A stretch of 64,000 nucleotides of DNA from Planctomycetota bacterium (GTDB lineage: Bacteria; Planctomycetota; GCA-002687715; DRQF01), in NCBI GenBank assembly GCA_036479435.1, contig JAZGFI010000147.1, positions 1 to 64,000 of the forward strand, read 5' to 3'. Both the position numbers and the translations under genes were made by a program. This document shows positions 12,736-22,543 of the stretch, piece after piece. The notes below the pieces were generated by a model. The model made no database searches, was not told the origin of the DNA, and saw nothing but the letters and a program-made list of their open reading frames with translations. The first letter of the stretch is position 1. Each line of letters begins with the position of its first letter.

Positions 12736-14625
12736 ATGAACGTAAAAAAGCCGCTTTCCATTCTCTCCGTGCTGCTCACTGCCGTCTTGGTGTTCGGCAA
12801 CATCGTGGTCTTAAACTTGCTGTGCCGAAAAGTCGACCAGCGTTGGGACCTCACCGAGGACAAGCGATATGAACTCGGCGAGGGCACAAGTAATATTCTC
12901 AGCCGCCTCGACGACACGGTTTCGGTCAAGGCTTATGTTTCGAGTAACTTGCCGAAGCGTTACGCACCTTTGGAGCGGCTTCTAATTGAGAAGCTCCAGG
13001 AGTACGAAAAAGAAGCTGGCGGCAAACTCATCTTTGAGTTTGTGGATCCTGATATCGACAAGAGCGCCAAACAAGAATGCGATGACCTCGGCATTCAGCC
13101 GGCTCGGCTCAACGAGTTCGAAAGAACGACGAGCCAGGTCGTCACGAGCTACATGGCGATAGTCTTTCGCTACGGCGATCGCAAAAAAGTCGTGAACTTC
13201 TTCATCGACTTGCGTACGTCCCTGGATGACCAAAATCGATTCGTTTCGGATCTTGAGTATCACCTCACGCGCGGAATTCAGTCGATCTCCACCGACAGAA
13301 AAACCGTGGCGATCCTCGCGAACACGCAGATGGTTCCGTCAGATCCGCGAAACCCCAAAAGTGAAAAGCGCCCCTACCAGGGTTTGACCAACATCAAAGC
13401 CACGCTCGAACGTTCCTTTGACGTTTTAGAGTTGGACATCAAGGAAGTGAACCGCGGCGTCAATCTCCCCGAGAACCTTGATGCCATGCTGGTGCACGGC
13501 ATCCCGGAGACGACAGAAGTCGGTCGCTACATTATCGACCAGTTTATCATCGGCGGCGGCAACGTGCTGTTCATGGTGGATGCGGGTGCGGTCGACAGTC
13601 AGCCGAAACCCAAGGCGACGGTTATCGGCAAGCAGCGCGTGCGAGACTTCGACCTTCCGACATTTAAGGCGGTGGTCATCAACCACGGATTGAATCCATG
13701 GCTCGAGCACTTCGGACTGCGACTTGAGGCAGATTTCATTCTCGATTCTTCTGCCTTCGAGACGGTCTACATCAAAGACCGCCAACTCAAGCGGAATATC
13801 CTGAACCAAGTGGTCGTGCAGCCAGTGACCGATAACGGCCCCTACTTCAACTGGGTCAAGGTGCCAGCGCGCGGCGAGGACGGTGCACTCTTGTCAGAGA
13901 AGCAAGTCGCTCCCGACCAGCTGATCTTCCCGCCCCGAGATACTGTCGTTTTCACATCGGCTTCTCCCCTGACCTTGTTGGAGGACCGCCTCAAGGCTCA
14001 GGGCGCCAAGTCGACGGTCTTGATTCGATCCGGCCCAGGAAGCTGGACCCGGCCGATCAAGGGCGAGTCGTTTTCGCCGGATCCCAAACAGCAGATGCTG
14101 ACCCCCGGAGAGGGGATGTTCCCGATCATGGTGATGCTGAGCGGGAAATTTTCCTCGTACTACAAAGGCAAGGATGTCCCCGCCGTGTTGGGTGCCAACG
14201 GCGAACCGCTTCCGGTGCCACAAGAGCGCAAAGACTGTCGGCGTGACGATGCGGCGGAGGAGGGGACGATCCTCTTTCTTGGGGATGCTGATTGCGCCCA
14301 TGACCGTATGTTGCAGGGGATCATGCAGATTGAGGCCGAAGTCAACAAAGTTGGCAGTCGCTTGCTCGCACAGAAAAAAGCGACGTCGATGGTGAAGCTC
14401 GTCAGCAACTCGATGGATTTGCTTTGCTTCGGCGGTGAAGCGGGCGATTTGTTCGAAGTGAAGAACAAGCTCTTGGTGCGGTCACGGGCCATCAAGTCGG
14501 TTGAGGATCATCCCGACGACAAGAGTCTTATCGACCTCGTCGTCTTTTTTCTCATTCCCGGGTTCGTCGTGGCACTGGGCATCTTGCGATGGATCTTTCG
14601 CCGCGTGACGGCGGTGGCCAGTTAG
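12736..14625 (+). CDS. GldG-family ABC auxiliary component
   Basis: N-terminal TM, WDLTEDKRYEL, IDQFIIGGGNVLFMVD, C-terminal TM; follows GldA/F-like genes. Confidence 0.82.
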   Translation: MNVKKPLSILSVLLTAVLVFGNIVVLNLLCRKVDQRWDLTEDKRYELGEGTSNILSRLDDTVSVKAYVSSNLPKRYAPLERLLIEKLQEYEKEAGGKLIFEFVDPDIDKSAKQECDDLGIQPARLNEFERTTSQVVTSYMAIVFRYGDRKKVVNFFIDLRTSLDDQNRFVSDLEYHLTRGIQSISTDRKTVAILANTQMVPSDPRNPKSEKRPYQGLTNIKATLERSFDVLELDIKEVNRGVNLPENLDAMLVHGIPETTEVGRYIIDQFIIGGGNVLFMVDAGAVDSQPKPKATVIGKQRVRDFDLPTFKAVVINHGLNPWLEHFGLRLEADFILDSSAFETVYIKDRQLKRNILNQVVVQPVTDNGPYFNWVKVPARGEDGALLSEKQVAPDQLIFPPRDTVVFTSASPLTLLEDRLKAQGAKSTVLIRSGPGSWTRPIKGESFSPDPKQQMLTPGEGMFPIMVMLSGKFSSYYKGKDVPAVLGANGEPLPVPQERKDCRRDDAAEEGTILFLGDADCAHDRMLQGIMQIEAEVNKVGSRLLAQKKATSMVKLVSNSMDLLCFGGEAGDLFEVKNKLLVRSRAIKSVEDHPDDKSLIDLVVFFLIPGFVVALGILRWIFRRVTAVAS

Positions 14626-14632
14626 GGAAACC

Positions 14633-15757
14633 ATGAAGAACATCATCCTTGGATTCTTGCTCTTAGCACAGATCACGGTGTGGTTCGTCATCGACCCGCC
14701 CTGGGGCCAACGAAAAGCGCGCACCGACATCGTGGACCAAAAAAAGCTTGAGGCGGTGGCAACCGACCAAGTTGGCCGCATTAGGATTCAGCCACCTGGC
14801 TTGGAGTCTTTGACGCTCGAGAAATCTAAAGACCGGTGGACCATTCGCGAGGCGCAGGGTTTTCCGGCGACGGAATCCACGGTTGCGGCCTTGCTGCTCG
14901 AGATGGATCTATTGGCAAAGAGCGGTTTTCGCTCGCCCAAGTCAGCAATGCATGACACTTACGAAGTCAGTGCTGCCAAGGGAACGAGGCTCACCTTGGA
15001 AACCGCTGATGCCAAGTTGATCGGCAAGTACATCATTGGCAAGCGTGACATCCAGGGCCTGCAGGGGACTTTCATTCGGCTCGATGGCGATGACGATGTC
15101 TACGTGACGCCGGCGAAGAAACTCGCGAGCTTGCTAACGGTAGATCCGAAACGCTGGTACGACCCCGCGATGATGGACGTTGACTATCGCCAGCAAGCCC
15201 GCCTCAGCGAGCTTAGTTCGAACTGCTATCGGCTTGAGATCGAATCGAACGCCCCTGACCCCAAGAACCCAGAGCTGAAAGTTCGCAAGCGATTCGTTTA
15301 CGAAAAAGTCGCGGCCACCGAACCAGGCGGCGAGGCCCAATGGCGAGTGGTCGAACCCAGCGACCAAAAAGAGCTCAAACTCAACGGTCTGTTGGTGAAG
15401 GGTTTGGCTAGCGCCGTCCTCAGCACTCGCGCCGTCAATCTGATCGGGGCGACCACTCAGCCCGAATACGGCCTTGATGATCCCGACGAAATCCGACTTC
15501 GAGTCCGCGCTCGTTTCAAAGACGACAACGAAGAGACGGTTCGAACTTTGGAAATCGGAAACGAGATCCCGCCCATCCAAGCCGGTCGCCCGTCACGCTT
15601 TCGTTACGCAAAGTCCAGCTATCCCGGCGATCAACTAAAGCAGCGCTTTGTCTTTGCCATCTCGAACGTGACCCCGCGTTATTACGAGCGAGGCCCGGCG
15701 GTCTTGGAGCAAAAAGCCGACCCGAAAAAGAAGAAGGCGGCGTCAGCGCCCAAATAG
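14633..15757 (+). CDS. DUF4340-domain exported protein
   Basis: N-terminal TM, two similar halves, YGLDDP motif; usual position after gldG. Confidence 0.7.
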   Translation: MKNIILGFLLLAQITVWFVIDPPWGQRKARTDIVDQKKLEAVATDQVGRIRIQPPGLESLTLEKSKDRWTIREAQGFPATESTVAALLLEMDLLAKSGFRSPKSAMHDTYEVSAAKGTRLTLETADAKLIGKYIIGKRDIQGLQGTFIRLDGDDDVYVTPAKKLASLLTVDPKRWYDPAMMDVDYRQQARLSELSSNCYRLEIESNAPDPKNPELKVRKRFVYEKVAATEPGGEAQWRVVEPSDQKELKLNGLLVKGLASAVLSTRAVNLIGATTQPEYGLDDPDEIRLRVRARFKDDNEETVRTLEIGNEIPPIQAGRPSRFRYAKSSYPGDQLKQRFVFAISNVTPRYYERGPAVLEQKADPKKKKAASAPK

Positions 15758-15949
15758 TCGACGGATCTTAGGGCTCAGTCAAGAATAACTTCACATTCTC
15801 GCCGCTCAGCTTCACGCCATCTTCGGTCCGTGCTCAATCGCGAGAATCTTCGAATTCAGGAAGCATGCTGCGGTTCTCGCTCAATCGCCCGAACTGAATC
15901 TGACGCAAATCTGAGTGCGAACTCTGCGAGCTCATTCTTGACCGAGCCC

Positions 15950-16549
15950 TTAGGTCGGCCAAACGATCTTGAGCGACTTGCGCACCAGATCTTCAAGCTG
16001 CATGGTTTCGCTTTGCCCGGCGAGGATCTTTCGCACCGCCTGAAGGGCGGGTTTTGCGGGGCAGCCCAAGACCTCGAGAGCTTGAATCGCATCGGACTCA
16101 AGCCCCTGGCCGGCGGGTATCCCGGCGGCGGGCAAGTCGCCGACAAGAAAGGGAGCGACTTTATCCTCGAGTTCGGTGATGATCCTCTGCGCGGTTTTTG
16201 GGCCGACGCCTTTCAGGCTCCTTAGATAGTCGACGCGCCCCTCGGCAATCGCCGACGCGATCTCAGGGACTTCTGTCCGCGACAACACCGCGATGGACAA
16301 GGCCGGTCCGACACCGCTTACTTTTTGCAAGAGACGGAACAACTCGCGCTCGGGCTTTGTGCTGAATCCAAATAGACGTTGGTGATCTTCACGGACGTGG
16401 TGATGCGTCCAGATCTGAGCCACGCCGGAACTTGGCAAACGGTTGGCGGTCGACAGAGGAATCGACAAGAAATAACCCACACCCCCAGTTTCGATGACAA
16501 CTGAAGTCGGCTTCTTGTCGCTGATTTCTCCGCGAATGAACTCAAACAT
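15950..16549 (-). CDS. ruvA: Holliday junction branch migration protein RuvA
   Basis: MFEFIRG, GGVGY, VRED..LFGF, two HhH motifs (VSGVGP, LKGVGPKTAQRI). Confidence 0.96.
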   Translation of the reverse strand: MFEFIRGEISDKKPTSVVIETGGVGYFLSIPLSTANRLPSSGVAQIWTHHHVREDHQRLFGFSTKPERELFRLLQKVSGVGPALSIAVLSRTEVPEIASAIAEGRVDYLRSLKGVGPKTAQRIITELEDKVAPFLVGDLPAAGIPAGQGLESDAIQALEVLGCPAKPALQAVRKILAGQSETMQLEDLVRKSLKIVWPT

Positions 16550-16608
16550 TGATTGCCCAACTCCGTCGGTGCTGCTCTTGGTGCCCTGGTCTTCGATCTC
16601 ATCCGCAC

Positions 16609-16649
16609 AAAAAACAAGGCGCCCCGCCGAATGATTCGGCAGAGCGCCT
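16609..16649 (-). terminator. Intrinsic terminator after the TPR-alphaCTD gene
   Basis: The minus strand reads AGGCGCTCTGCCGAATCATTCGGCGGGGCGCCTTG-TTTTTT. Confidence 0.75.
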
Positions 16650-16691
16650 CGATTTTACGTTCGCGCGCGGACAGTCGAAGACGGTGTCGAT

Positions 16692-18119
16692 TCAGCGATC
16701 GACAGTGCGCATGGCAAGCCCCATCGTTTCAACCTGATCGGTGATCTCGCGCAGTGACGTCGCTCCGAAATTCCGCTGGGCCAAGAGCTCATCGGAGGTG
16801 TAGGCGATGAGCGCGCCGACGGTCTTGATATTCAGGTTGGCCAAGCACTTGCGGGAGCGAACCGAGAGGTTCATGTCGCCGCAGAGCATCTGCAAACGAC
16901 TGTCATTGGGGTCCACGCTGAAGGAAGCCGGAGCCGCGACGGGGGCGGTGGTCGCCGCTCCCCCTGGACCGGCCGCCGCTCGCGGTGCCACGGGCTCGAG
17001 TTCGTCTTCGGGACGCATACCGAGGCGAAGGCCCTTGCTGTCCAGGATCTGCTTGATCTCGTTGAGGCTTGTCTCGCCGAAGTTCTTGTAGGAAAGAAGC
17101 TCGGGTTCGGTACGCATCACAAGGTCGGCCAAAGTGATGATGTTCATCTTCGACAAACAGTTACGCGAACGGACGCTCAACTCGAAGTCGCTGACCGGGA
17201 TCTTGAGGATCTGGTTCTTCTTGTCCTGGCGAACTTCCTGATCTTCGTCGTAGTGCATGTTCAACGAAGACTCTGCGTCTTTCAGAAAGAGCAGGGCGCG
17301 CGGGTGGCGCGGGAAGGCCGCGAGCACGCGACGGTAGCAATAGACAGCATCGTGATAGCGGTCGGCGTCTTCAAACAAGACTCCGAGATTGATCAAGGCG
17401 TTGACATGAGTCGGCTGCTGGTTGGCGATACGCTCGTAGAGCGAGATAGCTTCCGAGTCTTCACTCGACATGTCGCGCCGGTAGGCCTTACGGAACAAGC
17501 AGTCGACGTGCAGGGGATTCGTTTTGATTCCCTTTTCGTAGCACTCTTCGGCCTTGTCGTAATCGTCTTCACCTTCGTAGAGCAGGCCCTGGAAGAACAA
17601 CCCGTCGGGAGTTTCGGCATAGGCTTCGCCCGCTTTTTTGAAGGCGGCTTCAGCTTGTTCTAGTTGGCCCGATGCGCGGAGTGCTTTTAGACGCAAGGTG
17701 ATCGCTTCGGGATGCTGCGAACCCGAACTCACCAGGGCTTCGGCGGCCTTGCCGGGGCGGCTCGGACGATTCTCGGTGCCGGTGCCGCCGGCGAAGAGTG
17801 CGGCTTCGGCGAAGGCGAATGCCGTTACGTCGTCGCCGTGGGATTTCTCAAGATAGTCGTAAGCGGTTTGATAATCAGCGCACAACCAGCTCGCAACACC
17901 TTGGAGTTGGCTGGCGTCGCTCTTGCCTGCCGCAACTTCACCGAGCTCTTCGACCTTCGAATCGAGGGCACGGCGCACGTACTTGTTGCTGAGGACGACC
18001 TTCCTGAGGTCGAGCAATTCGCTGAGGTCGAGTTCGTTGGGCTTTTTGCTGTGCCAGCCCCAATAGTCGACGTCGATCGTCTCTTCGATCGTCTCTTCGA
18101 TCGAGTTCTCAGAATTCAT
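16692..18119 (-). CDS. TPR protein with two tandem RNA polymerase alpha C-terminal domains
   Basis: TPR helices ([24 protein letters not shown]), then LSVRSRNCL...[11 protein letters not shown] and LSVRSRKCL...[11 protein letters not shown]. There is no alpha-NTD. The probable start is the ATG at 18119. Confidence 0.88.
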
Positions 18120-18413
18120 ACGAGTGAGTCTCCGGGGACTTGTCTGTCTGGATGGGATCGGCAACTGGCCGACGCTGAGTTTATCCTTGAAACTGGAACG
18201 CTTAAACCGCTATGGGAAAAAGTAGCGGATGGAGTCGATCGAAACCACCGAGCGCAAGCAGGGTGCCTCACGCGGTTTGGCGTCCCTTGTTTCGAGGCAG
18301 CCTCCGAGGCAAGATGCCGGACCAAGGTTCGCCCCAAGGGTGGATTCTGGCTGCCTTAGACTGGTCGACCAGGTCCCCATTTCTAACCGTAAACCGTAGA
18401 CATCAAAGCTTTT

Positions 18414-19877
18414 ATGTTCGATACCCTGACCAAGTCATTCGACTCGATTCGGCAGCGTTTTGCCGGTCGCCAGAAGCTCACTGAGGCCAACATCGGCGAA
18501 GCTCTGCGCGAGGTCCGGGTAGCCTTGCTCGAAGCCGACGTCAACTTTCAGGTTACGAAGAGCTTTATTGCCAAGATCAAAGAGGATGTGACCGGCCAAA
18601 AAGTGGTCAAAGGCGTCAGTCCCGGCGATCAGTTCATCAAGTGCATTCACGACGCTCTGACCGAACTCATGGGCCCCGAAGACCCCCATCTCGCCGAGGC
18701 CGAGTCCGGTCCGACCGTGGTGTTGATGGCCGGCCTGCAAGGTACGGGAAAAACGACCACCTGCGGCAAACTCGCCCTTCGGAGCGTGAAAGCCGAAAAA
18801 AAGGTCCTCCTTGTCGCTGCGGACGTCCAGCGACCGGCGGCTATTGAACAGCTCAAGGTTCTAGGACAGCAAGTCGGGGCCGAGGTGTTCGCGGTGCCGG
18901 GTGGCGATCCTCCGAGCATCTGCCGCGATGCCGTTGAGCATGCAAAAGCCACGGATGTTGACTTGGTCATTCTTGACACCGCGGGCCGCCTGCACATCGA
19001 CGATGAGTTGATGAAGGAACTGACTCTGGTGGCGAAGAACACTTCGCCCCACGAGATCTTTTTGGTTCTGGATGCCAACACCGGGCAGGACGCCGTCAAT
19101 AGCGCGAAGGAGTTTAACGAGTCCCTCGAGCTCACTGGCATCATCTTGACCAAGCTCGACAGCGGCACTCGCGGTGGTGCTGCACTTTCCGTAAAGCAGA
19201 CGACCGGCAAGGTCATCAAGTTCATCGGCGTCGGTGAGAAACTCGACAAGTTCGAGCCCTTCCACCCCGCTCGCATGGCCGATCGAATCCTCGGCATGGG
19301 CGATGTCGTTTCCTTGGTGGAAAAAGCCCAAGAAGCCATCGATGAGAAAGATGCCGAGCACACGGCCAAGCAGCTCATGGCCGGCACTTTCAACTTTGAC
19401 GACTTTTTGAAGATGCTGCAGATGATTAAGGGCATGGGCCCGATGAAGGACCTGATGAAAATGGTCCCTGGCATGAGCAGCAAGATGGACATGCTGGACC
19501 AAGTCGATGAACGTGAGTTTCATCGCAGCGAAGCCATCATCCAGTCCATGACTCCCAAAGAGCGTGTTCACCCCGAGATCCTCAACATGTCTCGCCGCGA
19601 GCGCATTGCCCGTGGTGCTGGAGTTGAGATTGAACAGGTCCACAATCTGATGCGCGGCTTTAAGCAAATGCGCGCGCAGATGAAGGAAATGCGCAAGTCG
19701 GGCATGCTGGGCGGCATGATGGACCCGACGAGGGCTCTCAAAAAACAGAAAGTGAAAGCCATCAAGGACATTGAGAAAGAGGGCGGCAGCGTTCTCGACT
19801 TGCCGGCCTTCAAAGGACTCAGGGCTTCGGGGCGGAGTGCCGTCGCGAAACCGAAAAAGAAGAAGAGGCGACGTTGA
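18414..19877 (+). CDS. ffh: Signal recognition particle protein Ffh
   Basis: ALLEADV, GLQGTGKTT, DTAGR, TKLD, RILGMGD and a Met-rich M domain. Confidence 0.97.
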   Translation: MFDTLTKSFDSIRQRFAGRQKLTEANIGEALREVRVALLEADVNFQVTKSFIAKIKEDVTGQKVVKGVSPGDQFIKCIHDALTELMGPEDPHLAEAESGPTVVLMAGLQGTGKTTTCGKLALRSVKAEKKVLLVAADVQRPAAIEQLKVLGQQVGAEVFAVPGGDPPSICRDAVEHAKATDVDLVILDTAGRLHIDDELMKELTLVAKNTSPHEIFLVLDANTGQDAVNSAKEFNESLELTGIILTKLDSGTRGGAALSVKQTTGKVIKFIGVGEKLDKFEPFHPARMADRILGMGDVVSLVEKAQEAIDEKDAEHTAKQLMAGTFNFDDFLKMLQMIKGMGPMKDLMKMVPGMSSKMDMLDQVDEREFHRSEAIIQSMTPKERVHPEILNMSRRERIARGAGVEIEQVHNLMRGFKQMRAQMKEMRKSGMLGGMMDPTRALKKQKVKAIKDIEKEGGSVLDLPAFKGLRASGRSAVAKPKKKKRRR

Positions 19878-19996
19878 CTAGGGACGGCTGGGATGACTCC
19901 GGCTTCCGCTTCGACGCCTCAATCAAATAAACGTAGTGATCGCGCTCGACCATGATTGGGTCGGACGCGCATCTTGAAGAAAGCGAGAACGCATTT

Positions 19997-20377
19997 ATGG
20001 CAACTGTCATCAGACTGACCCGACGCGGACGGATTCACGCGCCTTTTTACCGCATCGGTGTTTTCGACGCGCAAACTCGGCGTGATGGTGCATCGATTGA
20101 AAACCTCGGGTACTACAACCCGCTGGCGCGCGGCCAGGAGAAGCCTCTAGAGCTGAACCACGAGCGCGCCGCGTACTGGTTGTCAGTGGGCGCCACACCC
20201 AGCGAGACCGTGCGTTCATTCTTGAAGCGCGAGGGCATCGCCTTCGACTTGCGGGAACGTCGTTCGGCGAAAAACCGTAAGCGCTCGCAGAAGCGACTCG
20301 CGGCGGAAAAGAAGTCGGGTAAGCTGCACGGCAAAGCCAAGCAGAAGGCCACAAAGGCCGCCAAGGCCTCGGCCTAG
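19997..20377 (+). CDS. rpsP: 30S ribosomal protein S16 with basic C-terminal extension
   Basis: VIRLTRRG...PFYRI...RDG..IE.LGYYNP...[13 protein letters not shown]. Confidence 0.95.
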
Positions 20378-20556
20378 ATCGATCGTCATCGCTCGCTTGT
20401 CTCCTCGATCCCAGGAGTTTGCTTACTGGGATTTGGGTGGTGGCGAGAAAAGAGCGAGGTCCAACAGGATCGAGCTCGTTACGGCATTGAACTAATGAGA
20501 TCTCGGCTGGCGGGAATGGCGTGATGTGTACGCTGGCCGCAGCCTCGTAAGAAATA

Positions 20557-21960
20557 GTGGGGTCGCGGTTCGTGAGCGCAGCGTTACTGAAGAAGATCTT
20601 TCTTCCGCTGGAGAAGAAGTACGGCGGCCTACGTCGATTGGTCGAGACTGATCCTCTCGATCAACTCATCCTTCTCATCCTCTCGAATGGCACGACTGAA
20701 AAGCGTGCGCGGCAGGCTCTTGATGACCTTCACCGCACCTTCGTCGATTGGAACGAGATCCGGGTCACACCGGTCCATGGGATCGACGAGAGCTTGATCG
20801 CACTCGGGGCCAAAGCGAAAGCCGGCAAGGCGGCGCTTGTTCGTGAAATCCTGGCGATGGTCTATTCCCGCTACAACCGGGTGAGCCTCGACTTTCTGTT
20901 GGATAGATCCGACAAGAACTTTATCCGTAATCGCGATCGCCTCTTTGCCTATCTGGGCGACAAGTCGAGCGCGATTCCAGCCGTCTTTTCGGGTTACATC
21001 AATGGCGGCAAGGGCTCGATTCAGGTCGCTGGAGGTTTGCCCCGACTGTTGACGCGTCTGGGAGTGTTGAGCAAGGGCGGAACTCCCGCAAGCGCGAAGA
21101 AGCTGATCGAGTCTTGCTTTGATGATGAAGACCGACTGGTGTTTCTTTGGGGGGGCTATCACCTCGCCGATGAGAACTGCCACCGCGCGTTGCCCGATTG
21201 TAAGACCTGCCCCCTGCAGCCCGACTGCAAAGCTGCACCTGAAGAGATCAAGAAAGTACGGATCGCCGAGCAGAAGCTGCGCGAAAAGGCAGCCAAAGAA
21301 GCGGCCCGCGAATTAGCAATCAAGGTCGCCGAAGAGAGGGCTCGCAAGAAACAAGAAGAGCGCGAACGAAAAGCCGCCCAAGCCGAAGCGAACAAAAAGG
21401 AAGCGGCACGCAAAAAGGCCGAAGATTTGAGAAAAGCGGAAATCAAAAAGAAAGCGGACGCGAAACGTCAGGTCGAAGCCAAAAAGAAGGCTGAAGCAAA
21501 AAGAAAAGTCGACGCCAAAAAGAAGATCGTGGCGCTGAAGAAGGCGGCTGCCAAAAAGAAGGCCGACGCGAAGAAGAGTGTTGCGGCCAAGAAAAGTGCT
21601 GCGGCCAAAAAGAAGGTGAGCAAGAAGAAAGCCACGGCCAAGAAGAAGTCGACCAAGAAGGCGGCACCTAAGAAAAGAGCAGCACCGAAGAAGAAGGCAG
21701 CAGCAACAAAGAAGTCGACCAAAAAAGCCGCAGCCAAAAAGAAGGTGACGACCAAGAAGAAAGCCGTCACCAAAAAGAAGTCCGCCGCAAAGAAGGTTGC
21801 GAAGAAACCGGCGAGTAAGACCGCAAAGAAAACCGCAAAGAAAACCGCAAAGAAAACCGCAAAGAAAACCGCAAAGAAGGCAACGAAGAAGCCGGCGAGC
21901 AAAACCGCAAAGAAGACCGCGAAGAAAGCCGCCAAGAAGAAGAGTGGACGGCGCCGATAG
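20557..21960 (+). CDS. Endonuclease III-like (HhH-GPD/Fe-S) domain fused to a coiled coil and a histone H1-like Lys/Ala tail
   Basis: DPLDQLILLILS, FVDWNEIRV, Fe-S motif CHRALPDCKTCPLQPDC, then about 230 aa rich in K/A/E. Confidence 0.75.
   Translation: MGSRFVSAALLKKIFLPLEKKYGGLRRLVETDPLDQLILLILSNGTTEKRARQALDDLHRTFVDWNEIRVTPVHGIDESLIALGAKAKAGKAALVREILAMVYSRYNRVSLDFLLDRSDKNFIRNRDRLFAYLGDKSSAIPAVFSGYINGGKGSIQVAGGLPRLLTRLGVLSKGGTPASAKKLIESCFDDEDRLVFLWGGYHLADENCHRALPDCKTCPLQPDCKAAPEEIKKVRIAEQKLREKAAKEAARELAIKVAEERARKKQEERERKAAQAEANKKEAARKKAEDLRKAEIKKKADAKRQVEAKKKAEAKRKVDAKKKIVALKKAAAKKKADAKKSVAAKKSAAAKKKVSKKKATAKKKSTKKAAPKKRAAPKKKAAATKKSTKKAAAKKKVTTKKKAVTKKKSAAKKVAKKPASKTAKKTAKKTAKKTAKKTAKKATKKPASKTAKKTAKKAAKKKSGRRR
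21817..21876 (+). repeat. Coding tandem repeat, 5 x 12 nt (KTAK)
   Basis: AA(G/A)ACCGCAAAG repeated five times. Confidence 0.9.
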
Positions 21961-22543
21961 TCTTTTGGTTCTCGCCTCGGCCTCTCCGCGCCGCACCGAC
22001 TTGTTGCGGGAGTGGGGCGTGGCGCACCAAGTCAGACCCGCGAGACTCGAAGAGGTCATGCCTCGCGGCTTGAGCCCTAGCGCTGCGGTCATCGCCCTCG
22101 CTCGCCAAAAGGCGGCGTCCGTTTGCGCCCAATTGCGTGCCGAAAAATCAACCACCAAGAAAACCTGGGTCCTGGGTTCCGACACCGTCGTCTACTTGTC
22201 GGAGGAAGCGCTGGGGAAACCTCGAGACGATGCCGATGCCCGGCAGATGTTAGCGCGCCTCGCCGGGCGAAAGGTCGACGTTGTGACCGGGGTGGTCCTC
22301 ATGAACGTAAATGGAACCGAGATCCTCGAGGGCTCATGCTGCAGCACCTGCACCATGTGTTCGTACTCTTCAGCGGACATCGATGCCTACGTCGCGACCG
22401 GAGAACCACGGGACAAAGCCGGTTCCTTTGCGATCCAAGGGCTTGGCTCGGCCTTGGTAGCCGAACTAAAGGGCTCGCGGAGCAACGTTATCGGCTTGCC
22501 CAAATCCCTAGTCATGGACCTCTTGGCCAAGGCTGGATTTTGA
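21944..22543 (+). CDS. maf: Maf family nucleoside triphosphate pyrophosphatase
   Basis: LVLASASPRR, GSDTVV, LGKPRD, DKAGSFAIQG, NVIGLP. The GTG start overlaps the upstream gene. Confidence 0.93.
   Translation: MDGADSLLVLASASPRRTDLLREWGVAHQVRPARLEEVMPRGLSPSAAVIALARQKAASVCAQLRAEKSTTKKTWVLGSDTVVYLSEEALGKPRDDADARQMLARLAGRKVDVVTGVVLMNVNGTEILEGSCCSTCTMCSYSSADIDAYVATGEPRDKAGSFAIQGLGSALVAELKGSRSNVIGLPKSLVMDLLAKAGF

Follow-up and report, generated by a model that had tools for sequence, protein, structure and literature searches.

A near-universal core gene of the phylum Planctomycetota encodes a TPR protein that carries two RNA polymerase alpha-CTDs, and we tentatively read its product as a housekeeping adaptor that would lend a conserved partner, most likely RNA polymerase, DNA contacts of the alpha-CTD type in trans. 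Few control points of bacterial transcription have been studied as well as the alpha-CTD, which has been treated as part of alpha. Here a whole phylum carries two more copies on a scaffold of their own; one of these is better conserved than the copy on alpha, and the gene is probably essential. We describe this gene in a window of 64,000 nucleotides of a Planctomycetota genome (assembly GCA_036479435.1, contig JAZGFI010000147.1), whose relevant features are collected in Table 1.

Table 1. Coordinates of the TPR-2x-alpha-CTD gene, its domains and its flanking features in the window.
Feature	Position	Strand	Details	Basis
TPR-2x-alpha-CTD protein CDS	16692..18119	-	475 aa, stop codon 16692-16694	ORF list
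TPR-like helical repeat domain	17262..18062	-	residues ~20-286, 15 helices	AF2 model, Pfam, Foldseek
Connector from TPR to CTD1, first part	17229..17261	-	whole connector is residues 284-305	
Alpha-CTD copy 1 (CTD1)	17016..17228	-	residues 298-368	Pfam, genome scan, alignments
Pro/Ala-rich acidic inter-CTD linker, disordered	16905..17015	-	residues 369-405	
Alpha-CTD copy 2 (CTD2)	16704..16904	-	residues 406-472	Pfam, genome scan, alignments
Terminator-like hairpin and T-run	16605..16651	-	between stop codon and ruvA; 17-bp stem, 11 G-C pairs	hairpin 16651..16615
ruvA	15950..16549	-	co-directional downstream neighbour, 142-nt gap	Pfam RuvA_N, HHH_5, RuvA_C
ffh	18414..19877		divergent from the TPR-2x-alpha-CTD gene	

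The product is acidic and cytoplasmic, and its ATG start codon is supported by a 50-sequence alignment; an alternative TTG at 18164 would add 15 residues. Pfam matches RNA_pol_A_CTD (PF03118) to the protein in two stretches with an E-value of 1.6e-38 and 130.6 bits, against a gathering cut-off of 23.8, and a whole-genome scan finds the same family at 17040-17228 and 16728-16898 with 78.0 and 62.6 bits, respectively. Many TPR families (TPR_1, TPR_2, TPR_14 and others) also exceed their cut-offs in Pfam, confined to residues ~145-280. A sequence search of the PDB returns alpha-CTDs from many RNA polymerases, while Foldseek relates the helical repeats to consensus TPR and OGT TPR superhelices with probability 1.00; none of the Foldseek PDB matches listed combines TPR and alpha-CTD in one solved structure, all being TPR-containing proteins or TPR domains. 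The NCBIfam rpoA models (TIGR02027, NF003513) cover residues ~280-371 only, below their cut-offs (144.5 vs 302 and 129.5 vs 227.8), and an alpha-NTD is missing from the 475-aa protein. An earlier note, made from the letters of the window, had described TPR repeats, two complete alpha-CTDs and a Pro/Ala linker without an alpha-NTD, and had proposed an HMM scan as a check; with both the RNA_pol_A_CTD and the TPR models above cut-off, Pfam and NCBIfam confirm this layout.

The AF2 model of the whole protein has a pLDDT of 90.3, and each alpha-CTD copy is modelled with four helices at pLDDT >90. The two copies are attached in different ways. CTD1 follows a connector modelled as a helix at residues 292-305 (pLDDT 85-96), which is 22 residues long in 50 of 50 sequences, has 59% identity and aligns with the end of the rpoA interdomain linker (E. 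coli residues ~241-256). The linker that tethers CTD2 is disordered and of variable length, resembling in this the linker of the rpoA CTD: pLDDT falls to 41-46 at residues 383-400, family members have between 23 and 61 residues in it, and identity is 18%. Segment by segment, the protein carries charges of -12, -6, -2, +1, -3 and +1 and is strongly acidic overall.

Phyletic profiling, also suggested in the earlier note, covered 151 Planctomycetota genomes with a completeness of 90% or more. In 146 of them the full architecture is present, with the family profile extending over both CTDs, and at least three PF03118 matches occur in 145; the gene is mostly single-copy. Two genomes (G101 and G114) have a single CTD only, so that bivalency is not obligatory. 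Of the 33 loci from a genome-contig search, all are from Planctomycetota except one from an unlabelled 'bacterium', and the nearest ESM-Atlas clusters shown are all from this phylum as well. Our full-text literature searches found no paper on the family, in keeping with the earlier statement that no functional characterisation was known. The note had gone on to name it as its best candidate for an undescribed regulatory system; it is undescribed in that nothing has been found in print, but it looks like a housekeeping component.

Constraint is distributed unevenly along the protein. Comparison within one set of 21 genomes gives a mean pairwise identity of 0.67 for CTD1, against 0.56 for the rpoA CTD and 0.44 for CTD2; as judged from these alignments, CTD1 is shown to be constrained more strongly than the rpoA CTD of the same genomes. 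It is the best-conserved part of the protein, CTD2 being less conserved, and conservation is poor over residues 1-140, which average 22% identity to the query and are missing in about a dozen genomes. In the tree, CTD1 separates cleanly as a group, and so does the rpoA CTD (support 0.89), and the duplication is therefore older than the sampled families.

The genome has a separate, intact rpoA on another contig, as the earlier note had asked to be checked. Its 361-aa open frame, with a protein of 349 aa, holds the NTD (PF01000) and the CTD (PF03118, 86.5 bits) together, and PF01000 in this genome matches this true rpoA only; NTD and CTD likewise share one frame at each of 30 further rpoA loci examined in the phylum. 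CTD1 and CTD2 are 46% and 49% identical to the genome's own rpoA CTD. The idea of a split alpha subunit, in which an rpoA without a CTD would be complemented by the TPR-2x-alpha-CTD gene, is therefore refuted and has practically no chance of being right.

To compare residues, we numbered both copies through alignments to the E. coli alpha-CTD (1coo_A; 10ma_G numbering), where CTD1 residue p corresponds to E. coli p-52. In CTD1, R317, N320, N346, G348, E349 and T350 correspond to R265, N268, N294, G296, K297 and K298; in CTD2, R421, K424, G452, A453 and T454 correspond to R265, N268, G296, K297 and K298. LSVR and NxG are thus retained in both copies, and the KK pair becomes ET in CTD1 and AT in CTD2, as the earlier note had reported. 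The DNA contacts of the E. coli alpha-CTD (the '265 determinant') are R265, N268, N294, G296, K298, S299 and E302. Six of these seven residues are retained in CTD1 and five in CTD2: R265, N294, G296, S299 and E302 in both copies, and N268 in CTD1, position 268 being K/R in CTD2. Across the 50-sequence alignment, R317, N320, C321, N346, G348, T350 and E354 are invariant in CTD1, as are R421, G452, T454 and S455 in CTD2. CTD1 also conserves acidic residues at 259 and 261 together with E286/E288, positions that are protein-contact determinants of the E. coli alpha-CTD.

From the loss of the KK pair the earlier note had concluded that DNA contact is weakened, which is unsupported as stated. Position 298 is T in both copies and also in 20 of 21 planctomycete rpoA CTDs, where it is normal, and the mean net charge over 21 genomes is slightly higher in both copies (+1.4 for CTD1 and +1.7 for CTD2) than in the rpoA CTD (0.0), with R/K gained at position 267 in 21/21 genomes for CTD1 and 19/21 for CTD2. 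Because T298 is common to the lineage's rpoA, K297-to-E is the sole CTD1-specific change of the pair, at the level of these alignments: at position 297 of CTD1, 49 of 50 aligned sequences have E (E349) and 20 of 21 genomes E/D, while CTD2 mostly has Q. Lying beside the DNA-contact residues, E297 could disfavour DNA, and with CTDs that are only weakly basic in a protein that is acidic as a whole, strong DNA binding would not be assured.

The neighbours in the window are ruvA, ffh, rpsP and an ABC-auxiliary/DUF4340 pair. The gene is divergent from ffh, and a terminator-like hairpin with a T-run lies 3' of its stop codon, both as first described; a terminator consensus scan gives 1 site vs 3.4 expected in shuffles, a count not significant in itself. 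No sigma-70-type promoter was found by a promoter scan of 15800-18600, and there are no tRNA genes in 14000-22000, so that a tRNA-Thr linkage noted for another genome does not apply here. The description of the gene as monocistronic may hold for this genome but not for the family, in which ruvA is the usual co-directional downstream neighbour. Of 50 loci with room for it, 31 have ruvA directly downstream in the same orientation (17/30 genome-contig loci and 14/20 genomes drawn evenly from different families); the gap has a median of 16 nt and is at most 60 nt in 24 of the 31. The linkage is absent from 16 loci, inverted in 3, and absent from all six loci of one family (f7). Apparent upstream fusions at five loci (L071, L075, L079, L084 and L089) are Arg/Pro-rich non-coding read-through and were rejected. 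A search for fusion partners with query residues 284-475 gave one match among 2469 proteins of 833-2375 aa, of unrelated architecture, with Sigma70_r4 beside two alpha-CTDs and no TPR.

Evidence on essentiality comes from Planctopirus limnophila. In the source data of PMC10632474, Plim_0602 is the second gene labelled COG0202 and has an insertion index of 7.4e-4, vs 3.96e-3 for rpoA and 0.13-0.146 for Plim_0598-0601; the essential-gene heatmap of that paper includes it as a row. Its COG label and the phylum-wide pattern suggest that Plim_0602 is probably the orthologue, and on this inferred orthology the TPR-2x-alpha-CTD gene is probably essential for growth. Orthology pipelines place the gene in COG0202 ('RNA polymerase alpha'), and in PMC10632474 the likely orthologue is therefore listed under a universal COG and not as phylum-specific. 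The ruvA of P. limnophila, Plim_2446, belongs to the essential set (insertion index 0.0032) and lies far from Plim_0602, which in the published order is followed by Plim_0603, a Clp-type ATPase. Neither a Clp ATPase nor ruvA was found beside the gene in the six f7 loci (23 of 37 ORFs scanned), which is uninformative on the orthology of Plim_0602.

Taken together, these observations point us, with due reserve, to an adaptor that acts with the transcription machinery. CTD1 and CTD2 would bind the DNA minor groove as alpha-CTD does, because six of the seven determinant residues are retained and the seventh, K298, is T in the lineage's rpoA too. The TPR domain, the fixed-length connector and CTD1 may form one conserved surface that holds a protein partner, most likely the holoenzyme of RNA polymerase or one of the factors that it binds. 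With DNA-binding CTDs and such a surface, the protein would supply extra promoter-proximal alpha-CTD-type contacts in trans, or would tether its partner to DNA. A bolder form of this proposal is possible but doubtful: an essential, phylum-specific accessory subunit of RNA polymerase or general transcription factor that docks through TPR/CTD1, offers a third and fourth alpha-CTD for promoter DNA and, given the pairing with ruvA, may couple transcription to fork or junction processing. For the RNA polymerase of planctomycetes, our literature search turned up neither experiments nor pull-downs nor a structure.

The sole conserved genomic partner, ruvA, is a recombination and not a transcription gene, which counts against the adaptor, as do the acidity of the protein, E297 of CTD1 and the single-CTD forms in two genomes. 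Gene order kept across a phylum usually reflects a functional link, and the short gap to ruvA at most loci could mean that the protein works with RuvA in recombination, replication restart or the nucleoid; its alpha-CTDs would then be plain helix-hairpin-helix binders of branched or stalled-fork DNA, or act where forks meet transcription, and the TPR domain would recruit RuvA/RuvB or another repair factor. We consider this unlikely, even with RuvA itself in the essential set of P. limnophila (PMC10632474). The linkage is missing from 16 of 50 loci, all six f7 loci lack it, and at 3 of the 50 it is inverted; the presumed orthologue and ruvA are far apart in P. limnophila, a terminator-like hairpin separates the two genes in the window, and the acidic 259/261 and E286/E288 kept by CTD1 would be needless for a mere DNA binder. 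Complex prediction with RuvA scored 0.00 in two runs, which is no answer and weighs neither way. It is quite unlikely that the protein is an architectural, nucleoid-associated factor independent of RNA polymerase, with two minor-groove binders ~35 disordered residues apart that bridge or bend DNA and a self-associating TPR domain, contributing to a condensed nucleoid. Two modules of DNA-binding type on a flexible tether and the phylum-specific, near-universal gene would suit such a role, and planctomycete DNA is described in PMC10632474 as highly condensed, probably via DNA-binding proteins; yet its strong acidity sets the protein apart from typical nucleoid proteins, CTD1 is not free but anchored on the TPR domain, and single-CTD forms occur.

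The earlier note proposed a titrator, a bridge or a decoy, in which free alpha-CTDs with weakened DNA contact soak up class I activators or alpha-targeting phage proteins, or bridge them to RNA polymerase. The conserved protein-contact surfaces of CTD1 and its K297-to-E change would fit, but we hold this very unlikely: the lineage's own rpoA has T298 too, both domains are more basic than the rpoA CTD, and a core, mostly single-copy, probably essential gene in a housekeeping context of ruvA, ffh and rpsP is unlike a defence gene or niche regulator. The sole PADLOC match is weak and local, 52 residues of CTD2 against the HhH part of PglW (E 6.7e-6), with no full-length defence-protein match and no defence-island context, and neither a phage decoy nor an activator titrator finds evidence here.

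Should the adaptor prove to work with RNA polymerase, it would rank beside CarD/RbpA or GrgA as a lineage-specific general factor, and would offer a first way into the organisation of transcription in the Planctomycetota, whose cell biology is unlike that of model bacteria. Both of its alpha-CTDs are clear homologues of that of RpoA (PF03118; PDB 1COO, 1LB2, 3K4G), with PDB E-values of 1e-17 for CTD1 and 2.4e-10 for CTD2, and the homology reaches into the end of the alpha linker. Unlike RpoA, the TPR protein has no alpha-NTD and therefore cannot join core polymerase the way alpha does; it has two CTDs per chain behind a TPR superhelix, the first on a fixed connector in place of a flexible linker, and departs from RpoA at positions 297 (E in CTD1), 268 (K/R in CTD2) and 267 (R/K gained), with CTD1 in a clade of its own apart from the phylum's rpoA CTDs. 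More than one kind of alpha-CTD is likewise found in the RNA polymerase of Francisella tularensis (PDB 6WMP, 'alpha 1' and 'alpha 2'), whose alpha 2 gives CTD2 its best PDB match; both Francisella paralogues are full-length alphas (323 and 317 aa) that have an NTD and form part of the enzyme, whereas the extra CTDs described here belong to a TPR protein. The alpha-CTD fold also occurs outside alpha, without TPRs, in the BREX kinase PglW (NF033442, PDLC02512) and the 95-aa PRK07758 family, and a metagenomic protein of 899 aa (P0121) joins two alpha-CTDs to Sigma70_r4 without a TPR in a single, unrelated architecture; matches to such non-RpoA proteins are weak and local (E 1.8e-6, 6.7e-6 and 2.6e-8). 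CarD and RbpA of Actinobacteria and GrgA of Chlamydia are lineage-specific, essential general transcription factors. Should the adaptor reading be right, the likeness to them would be one of function only, that of a phylum-restricted, essential housekeeping protein that adds DNA or holoenzyme contacts at promoters, with polymerase binding putative here and without kinship in sequence or fold.

The protein carries TPR repeats followed by two complete alpha-CTDs, CTD1 and CTD2, as the earlier note had read from its sequence: an HMM scan matches PF03118 (RNA_pol_A_CTD) in two stretches (E 1.6e-38, 130.6 bits against a Pfam cut-off of 23.8) and several TPR families between residues ~145 and ~280, and both C-terminal modules are PF03118 members at domain level. 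The NCBIfam rpoA equivalogs cover residues ~280-371 only and score under their cut-offs (144.5 against 302; 129.5 against 227.8), in line with the claim that there is no alpha-NTD; the protein is not RpoA. Two sets of entries match in a PDB sequence search, one made up of the alpha-CTDs of many RNA polymerases and the other of TPR domains (consensus TPR, OGT); the Foldseek matches listed are TPR-containing proteins and TPR domains only, with no entry joining TPR and alpha-CTD among them. An upstream TTG could add 15 residues, yet the ATG position is the start in all 50 aligned relatives (alignment A1).

A confident AlphaFold2 model from the 50-sequence alignment (mean pLDDT 90.3, pTM 0.67) predicts fifteen helices in a TPR-like repeat between residues ~20 and 286. 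One more helix spans 292-305, and CTD1, of four helices, ends at ~368; then comes disorder (pLDDT 41-46 at 383-400), with CTD2 beyond as a second four-helix unit. CTD1 is joined to the TPR via a connector of invariant length, and CTD2 is loosely tethered, like the CTD of rpoA.

Features of the window and segments of the TPR-2x-alpha-CTD protein (identities are means to the query within A1; residue pairs give protein = E. coli alpha)
Feature	Position	Strand	Detail
TPR-2x-alpha-CTD CDS	16692..18119	-	475 codons from ATG, open frame
ABC_transp_aux/DUF7088 protein, then DUF4340 protein	12736..15757	+	
Ribosomal protein S16	19952..20377	+	Lys/Ala-rich C-terminal extension; Pfam S16 = residues 24-84 of 141
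467-aa ORF	20557..21960	+	no Pfam match
N-terminal segment	residues 1-140		22% identity
TPR	residues 141-283		42% identity
Connector	residues 284-305		59% identity; 22 residues in 50/50 sequences
CTD1			79% identity
Inter-CTD linker			18% identity; length 23-61
CTD2			46% identity
CTD1 map, part 1			R317=R265, N320=N268, C321=C269, N346=N294, G348=G296
CTD1 map, part 2			E349=K297, T350=K298, S351=S299, E354=E302, D311=D259, E313=E261
CTD2 map			R421=R265, K424=N268, G452=G296, A453=K297, T454=K298, S455=S299

PF03118 has three matches in the assembly that holds the window (5.47 Mb, 299 contigs, 92% complete), two of them inside the studied gene. The third, on contig C198, shares a 361-codon frame with the assembly's only PF01000 (alpha NTD) match; this frame gives a 349-residue RpoA, with rplQ next. 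A separate, intact rpoA with its own CTD is therefore present, and a split alpha subunit is refuted by the occurrence of both domains in one frame.

Across 151 evenly drawn Planctomycetota genomes (at least 90% complete, 69 families), 145, of which 121 have exactly three, carry at least three PF03118 matches; those with fewer are G006 and G105, with one match each, and G047, G101, G111 and G114, with two. A profile of the family matches 150/151 genomes at E <= 1e-20, and its best match spans both CTDs in 146; G047 matches in the TPR part only, G006 weakly, and G105 not at all. In about a dozen genomes the protein is shorter, beginning at profile position ~126-166 without the variable N-terminal third. 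CTD2 is dispensable in some lineages, because the orthologues at G101:C1:1874084-1875193 (a one-contig genome; open frame of 387 codons) and G114:C58:8605-9678 stop after CTD1. Six genomes have 6-7 PF03118 matches rather than three (G018, G044, G097, G112 and G126 in family f21; G034 in f37), and therefore probably hold further alpha-CTD paralogues.

Locus labels, ESM-Atlas clusters and database names suggest, indirectly, that the family may be specific to Planctomycetota. Among 33 loci in species-representative genomes, 32 are labelled Planctomycetota, Planctomycetia or Phycisphaerae and one just 'bacterium', and the nearest ESM-Atlas clusters, among those listed, are all Planctomycetota. A word-index search scored 7771 of 8000 candidate proteins at E <= 0.001, many of which may be TPR-only; within the best 120, such source names as are given are domain labels or, for JGI records, 'DNA-directed RNA polymerase subunit alpha'.

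Both the studied gene and rpoA were drawn from each of 21 genomes of different families for comparison. In pairwise comparison CTD1 averages 0.67 identity, the rpoA CTD 0.56 and CTD2 0.44, so that purifying selection on CTD1 appears stronger than on its copy source. A FastTree of the 63 domains has a clean split each for CTD1 and the rpoA CTD (support 0.89), with CTD2 as the remainder; the split into three kinds therefore predates the divergence of the sampled families.

We assume the usual assignment of E. coli alpha-CTD positions to DNA, sigma or CAP contact. Numbering follows alignments to E. coli alpha-CTDs (1coo_A, 3k4g_A; full-length chain 10ma_G), ungapped across the domain, with an offset of + 52 from E. 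coli to CTD1 and an equivalent map for CTD2. The earlier reading that LSVR and NxG are retained while KK becomes ET and AT is exact; its corollary, a weakened DNA contact, is not supported in that form. On these alignments loss of K298 belongs to this lineage's alpha in general and does not mark the paralogue, since the genome's own rpoA has NFGKTS and T stands at 298 in 20/21 planctomycete rpoA CTDs. Position 297 is K/R in 20/21 rpoA, E/D in 20/21 CTD1 and, for the most part, Q in CTD2. At position 267 both CTD1 (21/21) and CTD2 (19/21) have R/K where rpoA varies, and 268 is R/K in CTD2 (19/21). Because R265, N294, G296, S299 and E302 are retained in all three domains, and mean net charge is higher in CTD1 (+1.4) and CTD2 (+1.7) than in the rpoA CTD (0.0), these changes point to an altered rather than weakened contact. 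Over its full length, the protein is acidic.

The gene and ffh-rpsP diverge in the window, as had been noted, and on its other side ruvA comes next in the gene's own direction, after a gap of 142 nt that contains a 17-bp hairpin with a T-run; the terminator scan found 1 site against 3.4 in shuffles, so that hairpin quality, not site number, counts. Linkage to ruvA was scored in 50 loci: ruvA lies downstream on the same strand in 31 (17/30 genome_contigs loci that have 700 nt or more of downstream sequence, three with too little being left out, and 14/20 from evenly drawn genomes), on the opposite strand in 3, and is absent in 16. The stop-to-start gap has a median of 16 nt and is at most 60 nt in 24/31, an operon-like spacing, so the description of the gene as monocistronic stands at most for this genome and not for its relatives. 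A Pfam scan that covered 75 of 133 submitted ORFs bore out RuvA in the loci it reached; the linkage is missing from six loci of family f7. ffh adjoins the gene in L005-L007, the loci closest to the query, and in some that are more distant. The ABC_transp_aux/DUF7088 and DUF4340 pair recurs beyond ruvA in L007. The 467-aa ORF has a Cys cluster (C-x6-C-x2-C-x5-C) in its N-terminal ~230 residues; the roughly 230 residues after them form a Lys/Ala-rich tail, histone H1-like in look. Its product may bind DNA or belong to the nucleoid.

The gene is probably essential. Most model bacteria can do without ruvA, so its place in the essential set of Planctopirus limnophila is unusual. In the part of the TraDIS study available (PMC10632474), COG0202 labels two genes, Plim_0499 (rpoA; insertion index 3.96e-3) and Plim_0602 (7.4e-4), the latter beside Plim_0598-0601 at 0.13-0.146, with cut-offs of 0.013, 0.022 and 0.25; RuvA (Plim_2446, 0.0032) shares its essential set and is not adjacent, and that part of the text does not mention Plim_0602. 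By COG label and phylum pattern Plim_0602 is very probably the orthologue, since the studied gene is the sole non-rpoA alpha-CTD gene in most sampled genomes (121/151).

Our tentative preference is for an adaptor that serves the transcription machinery, most likely the RNA polymerase holoenzyme, by bringing it DNA contacts of the alpha-CTD type in trans: the two CTDs would bind the DNA minor groove, and the TPR and CTD1, held by the fixed-length connector, would offer a partner protein a conserved surface. Positions 259/261, which are acidic, and 286/288 are protein-contact determinants in E. coli, and CTD1 retains them; the domain was copied along with the end of alpha's linker; and a near-universal, probably essential gene suits a component of a core machine. 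The conserved operon is the ground for the main rival, in which the protein would work with RuvA in recombination, in fork processing or in conflicts between transcription and replication; it seems to us unlikely. A nucleoid protein independent of RNAP is less likely still, and the decoy or titrator of the earlier note is more doubtful again. The note's observation holds as a real feature and its interpretation in part.

A literature search found neither a description of this family nor a purified planctomycete RNA polymerase. Francisella (PDB 6WMP, itself among the PDB sequence matches) also has extra alpha-CTDs, but on two full-length alpha subunits, and BREX PglW and the PRK07758 family have weak alpha-CTD-like segments, all without the TPR scaffold. 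The metagenomic protein P0121 (899 aa, low-GC) places two canonical alpha-CTDs (NFGKK, NFGRK) before a Sigma70_r4 motif, without TPR, and appears to be another free tandem alpha-CTD architecture, in a single instance. The studied gene, uncharacterised, phylum-wide and probably essential, puts a well-known domain to a variant use.
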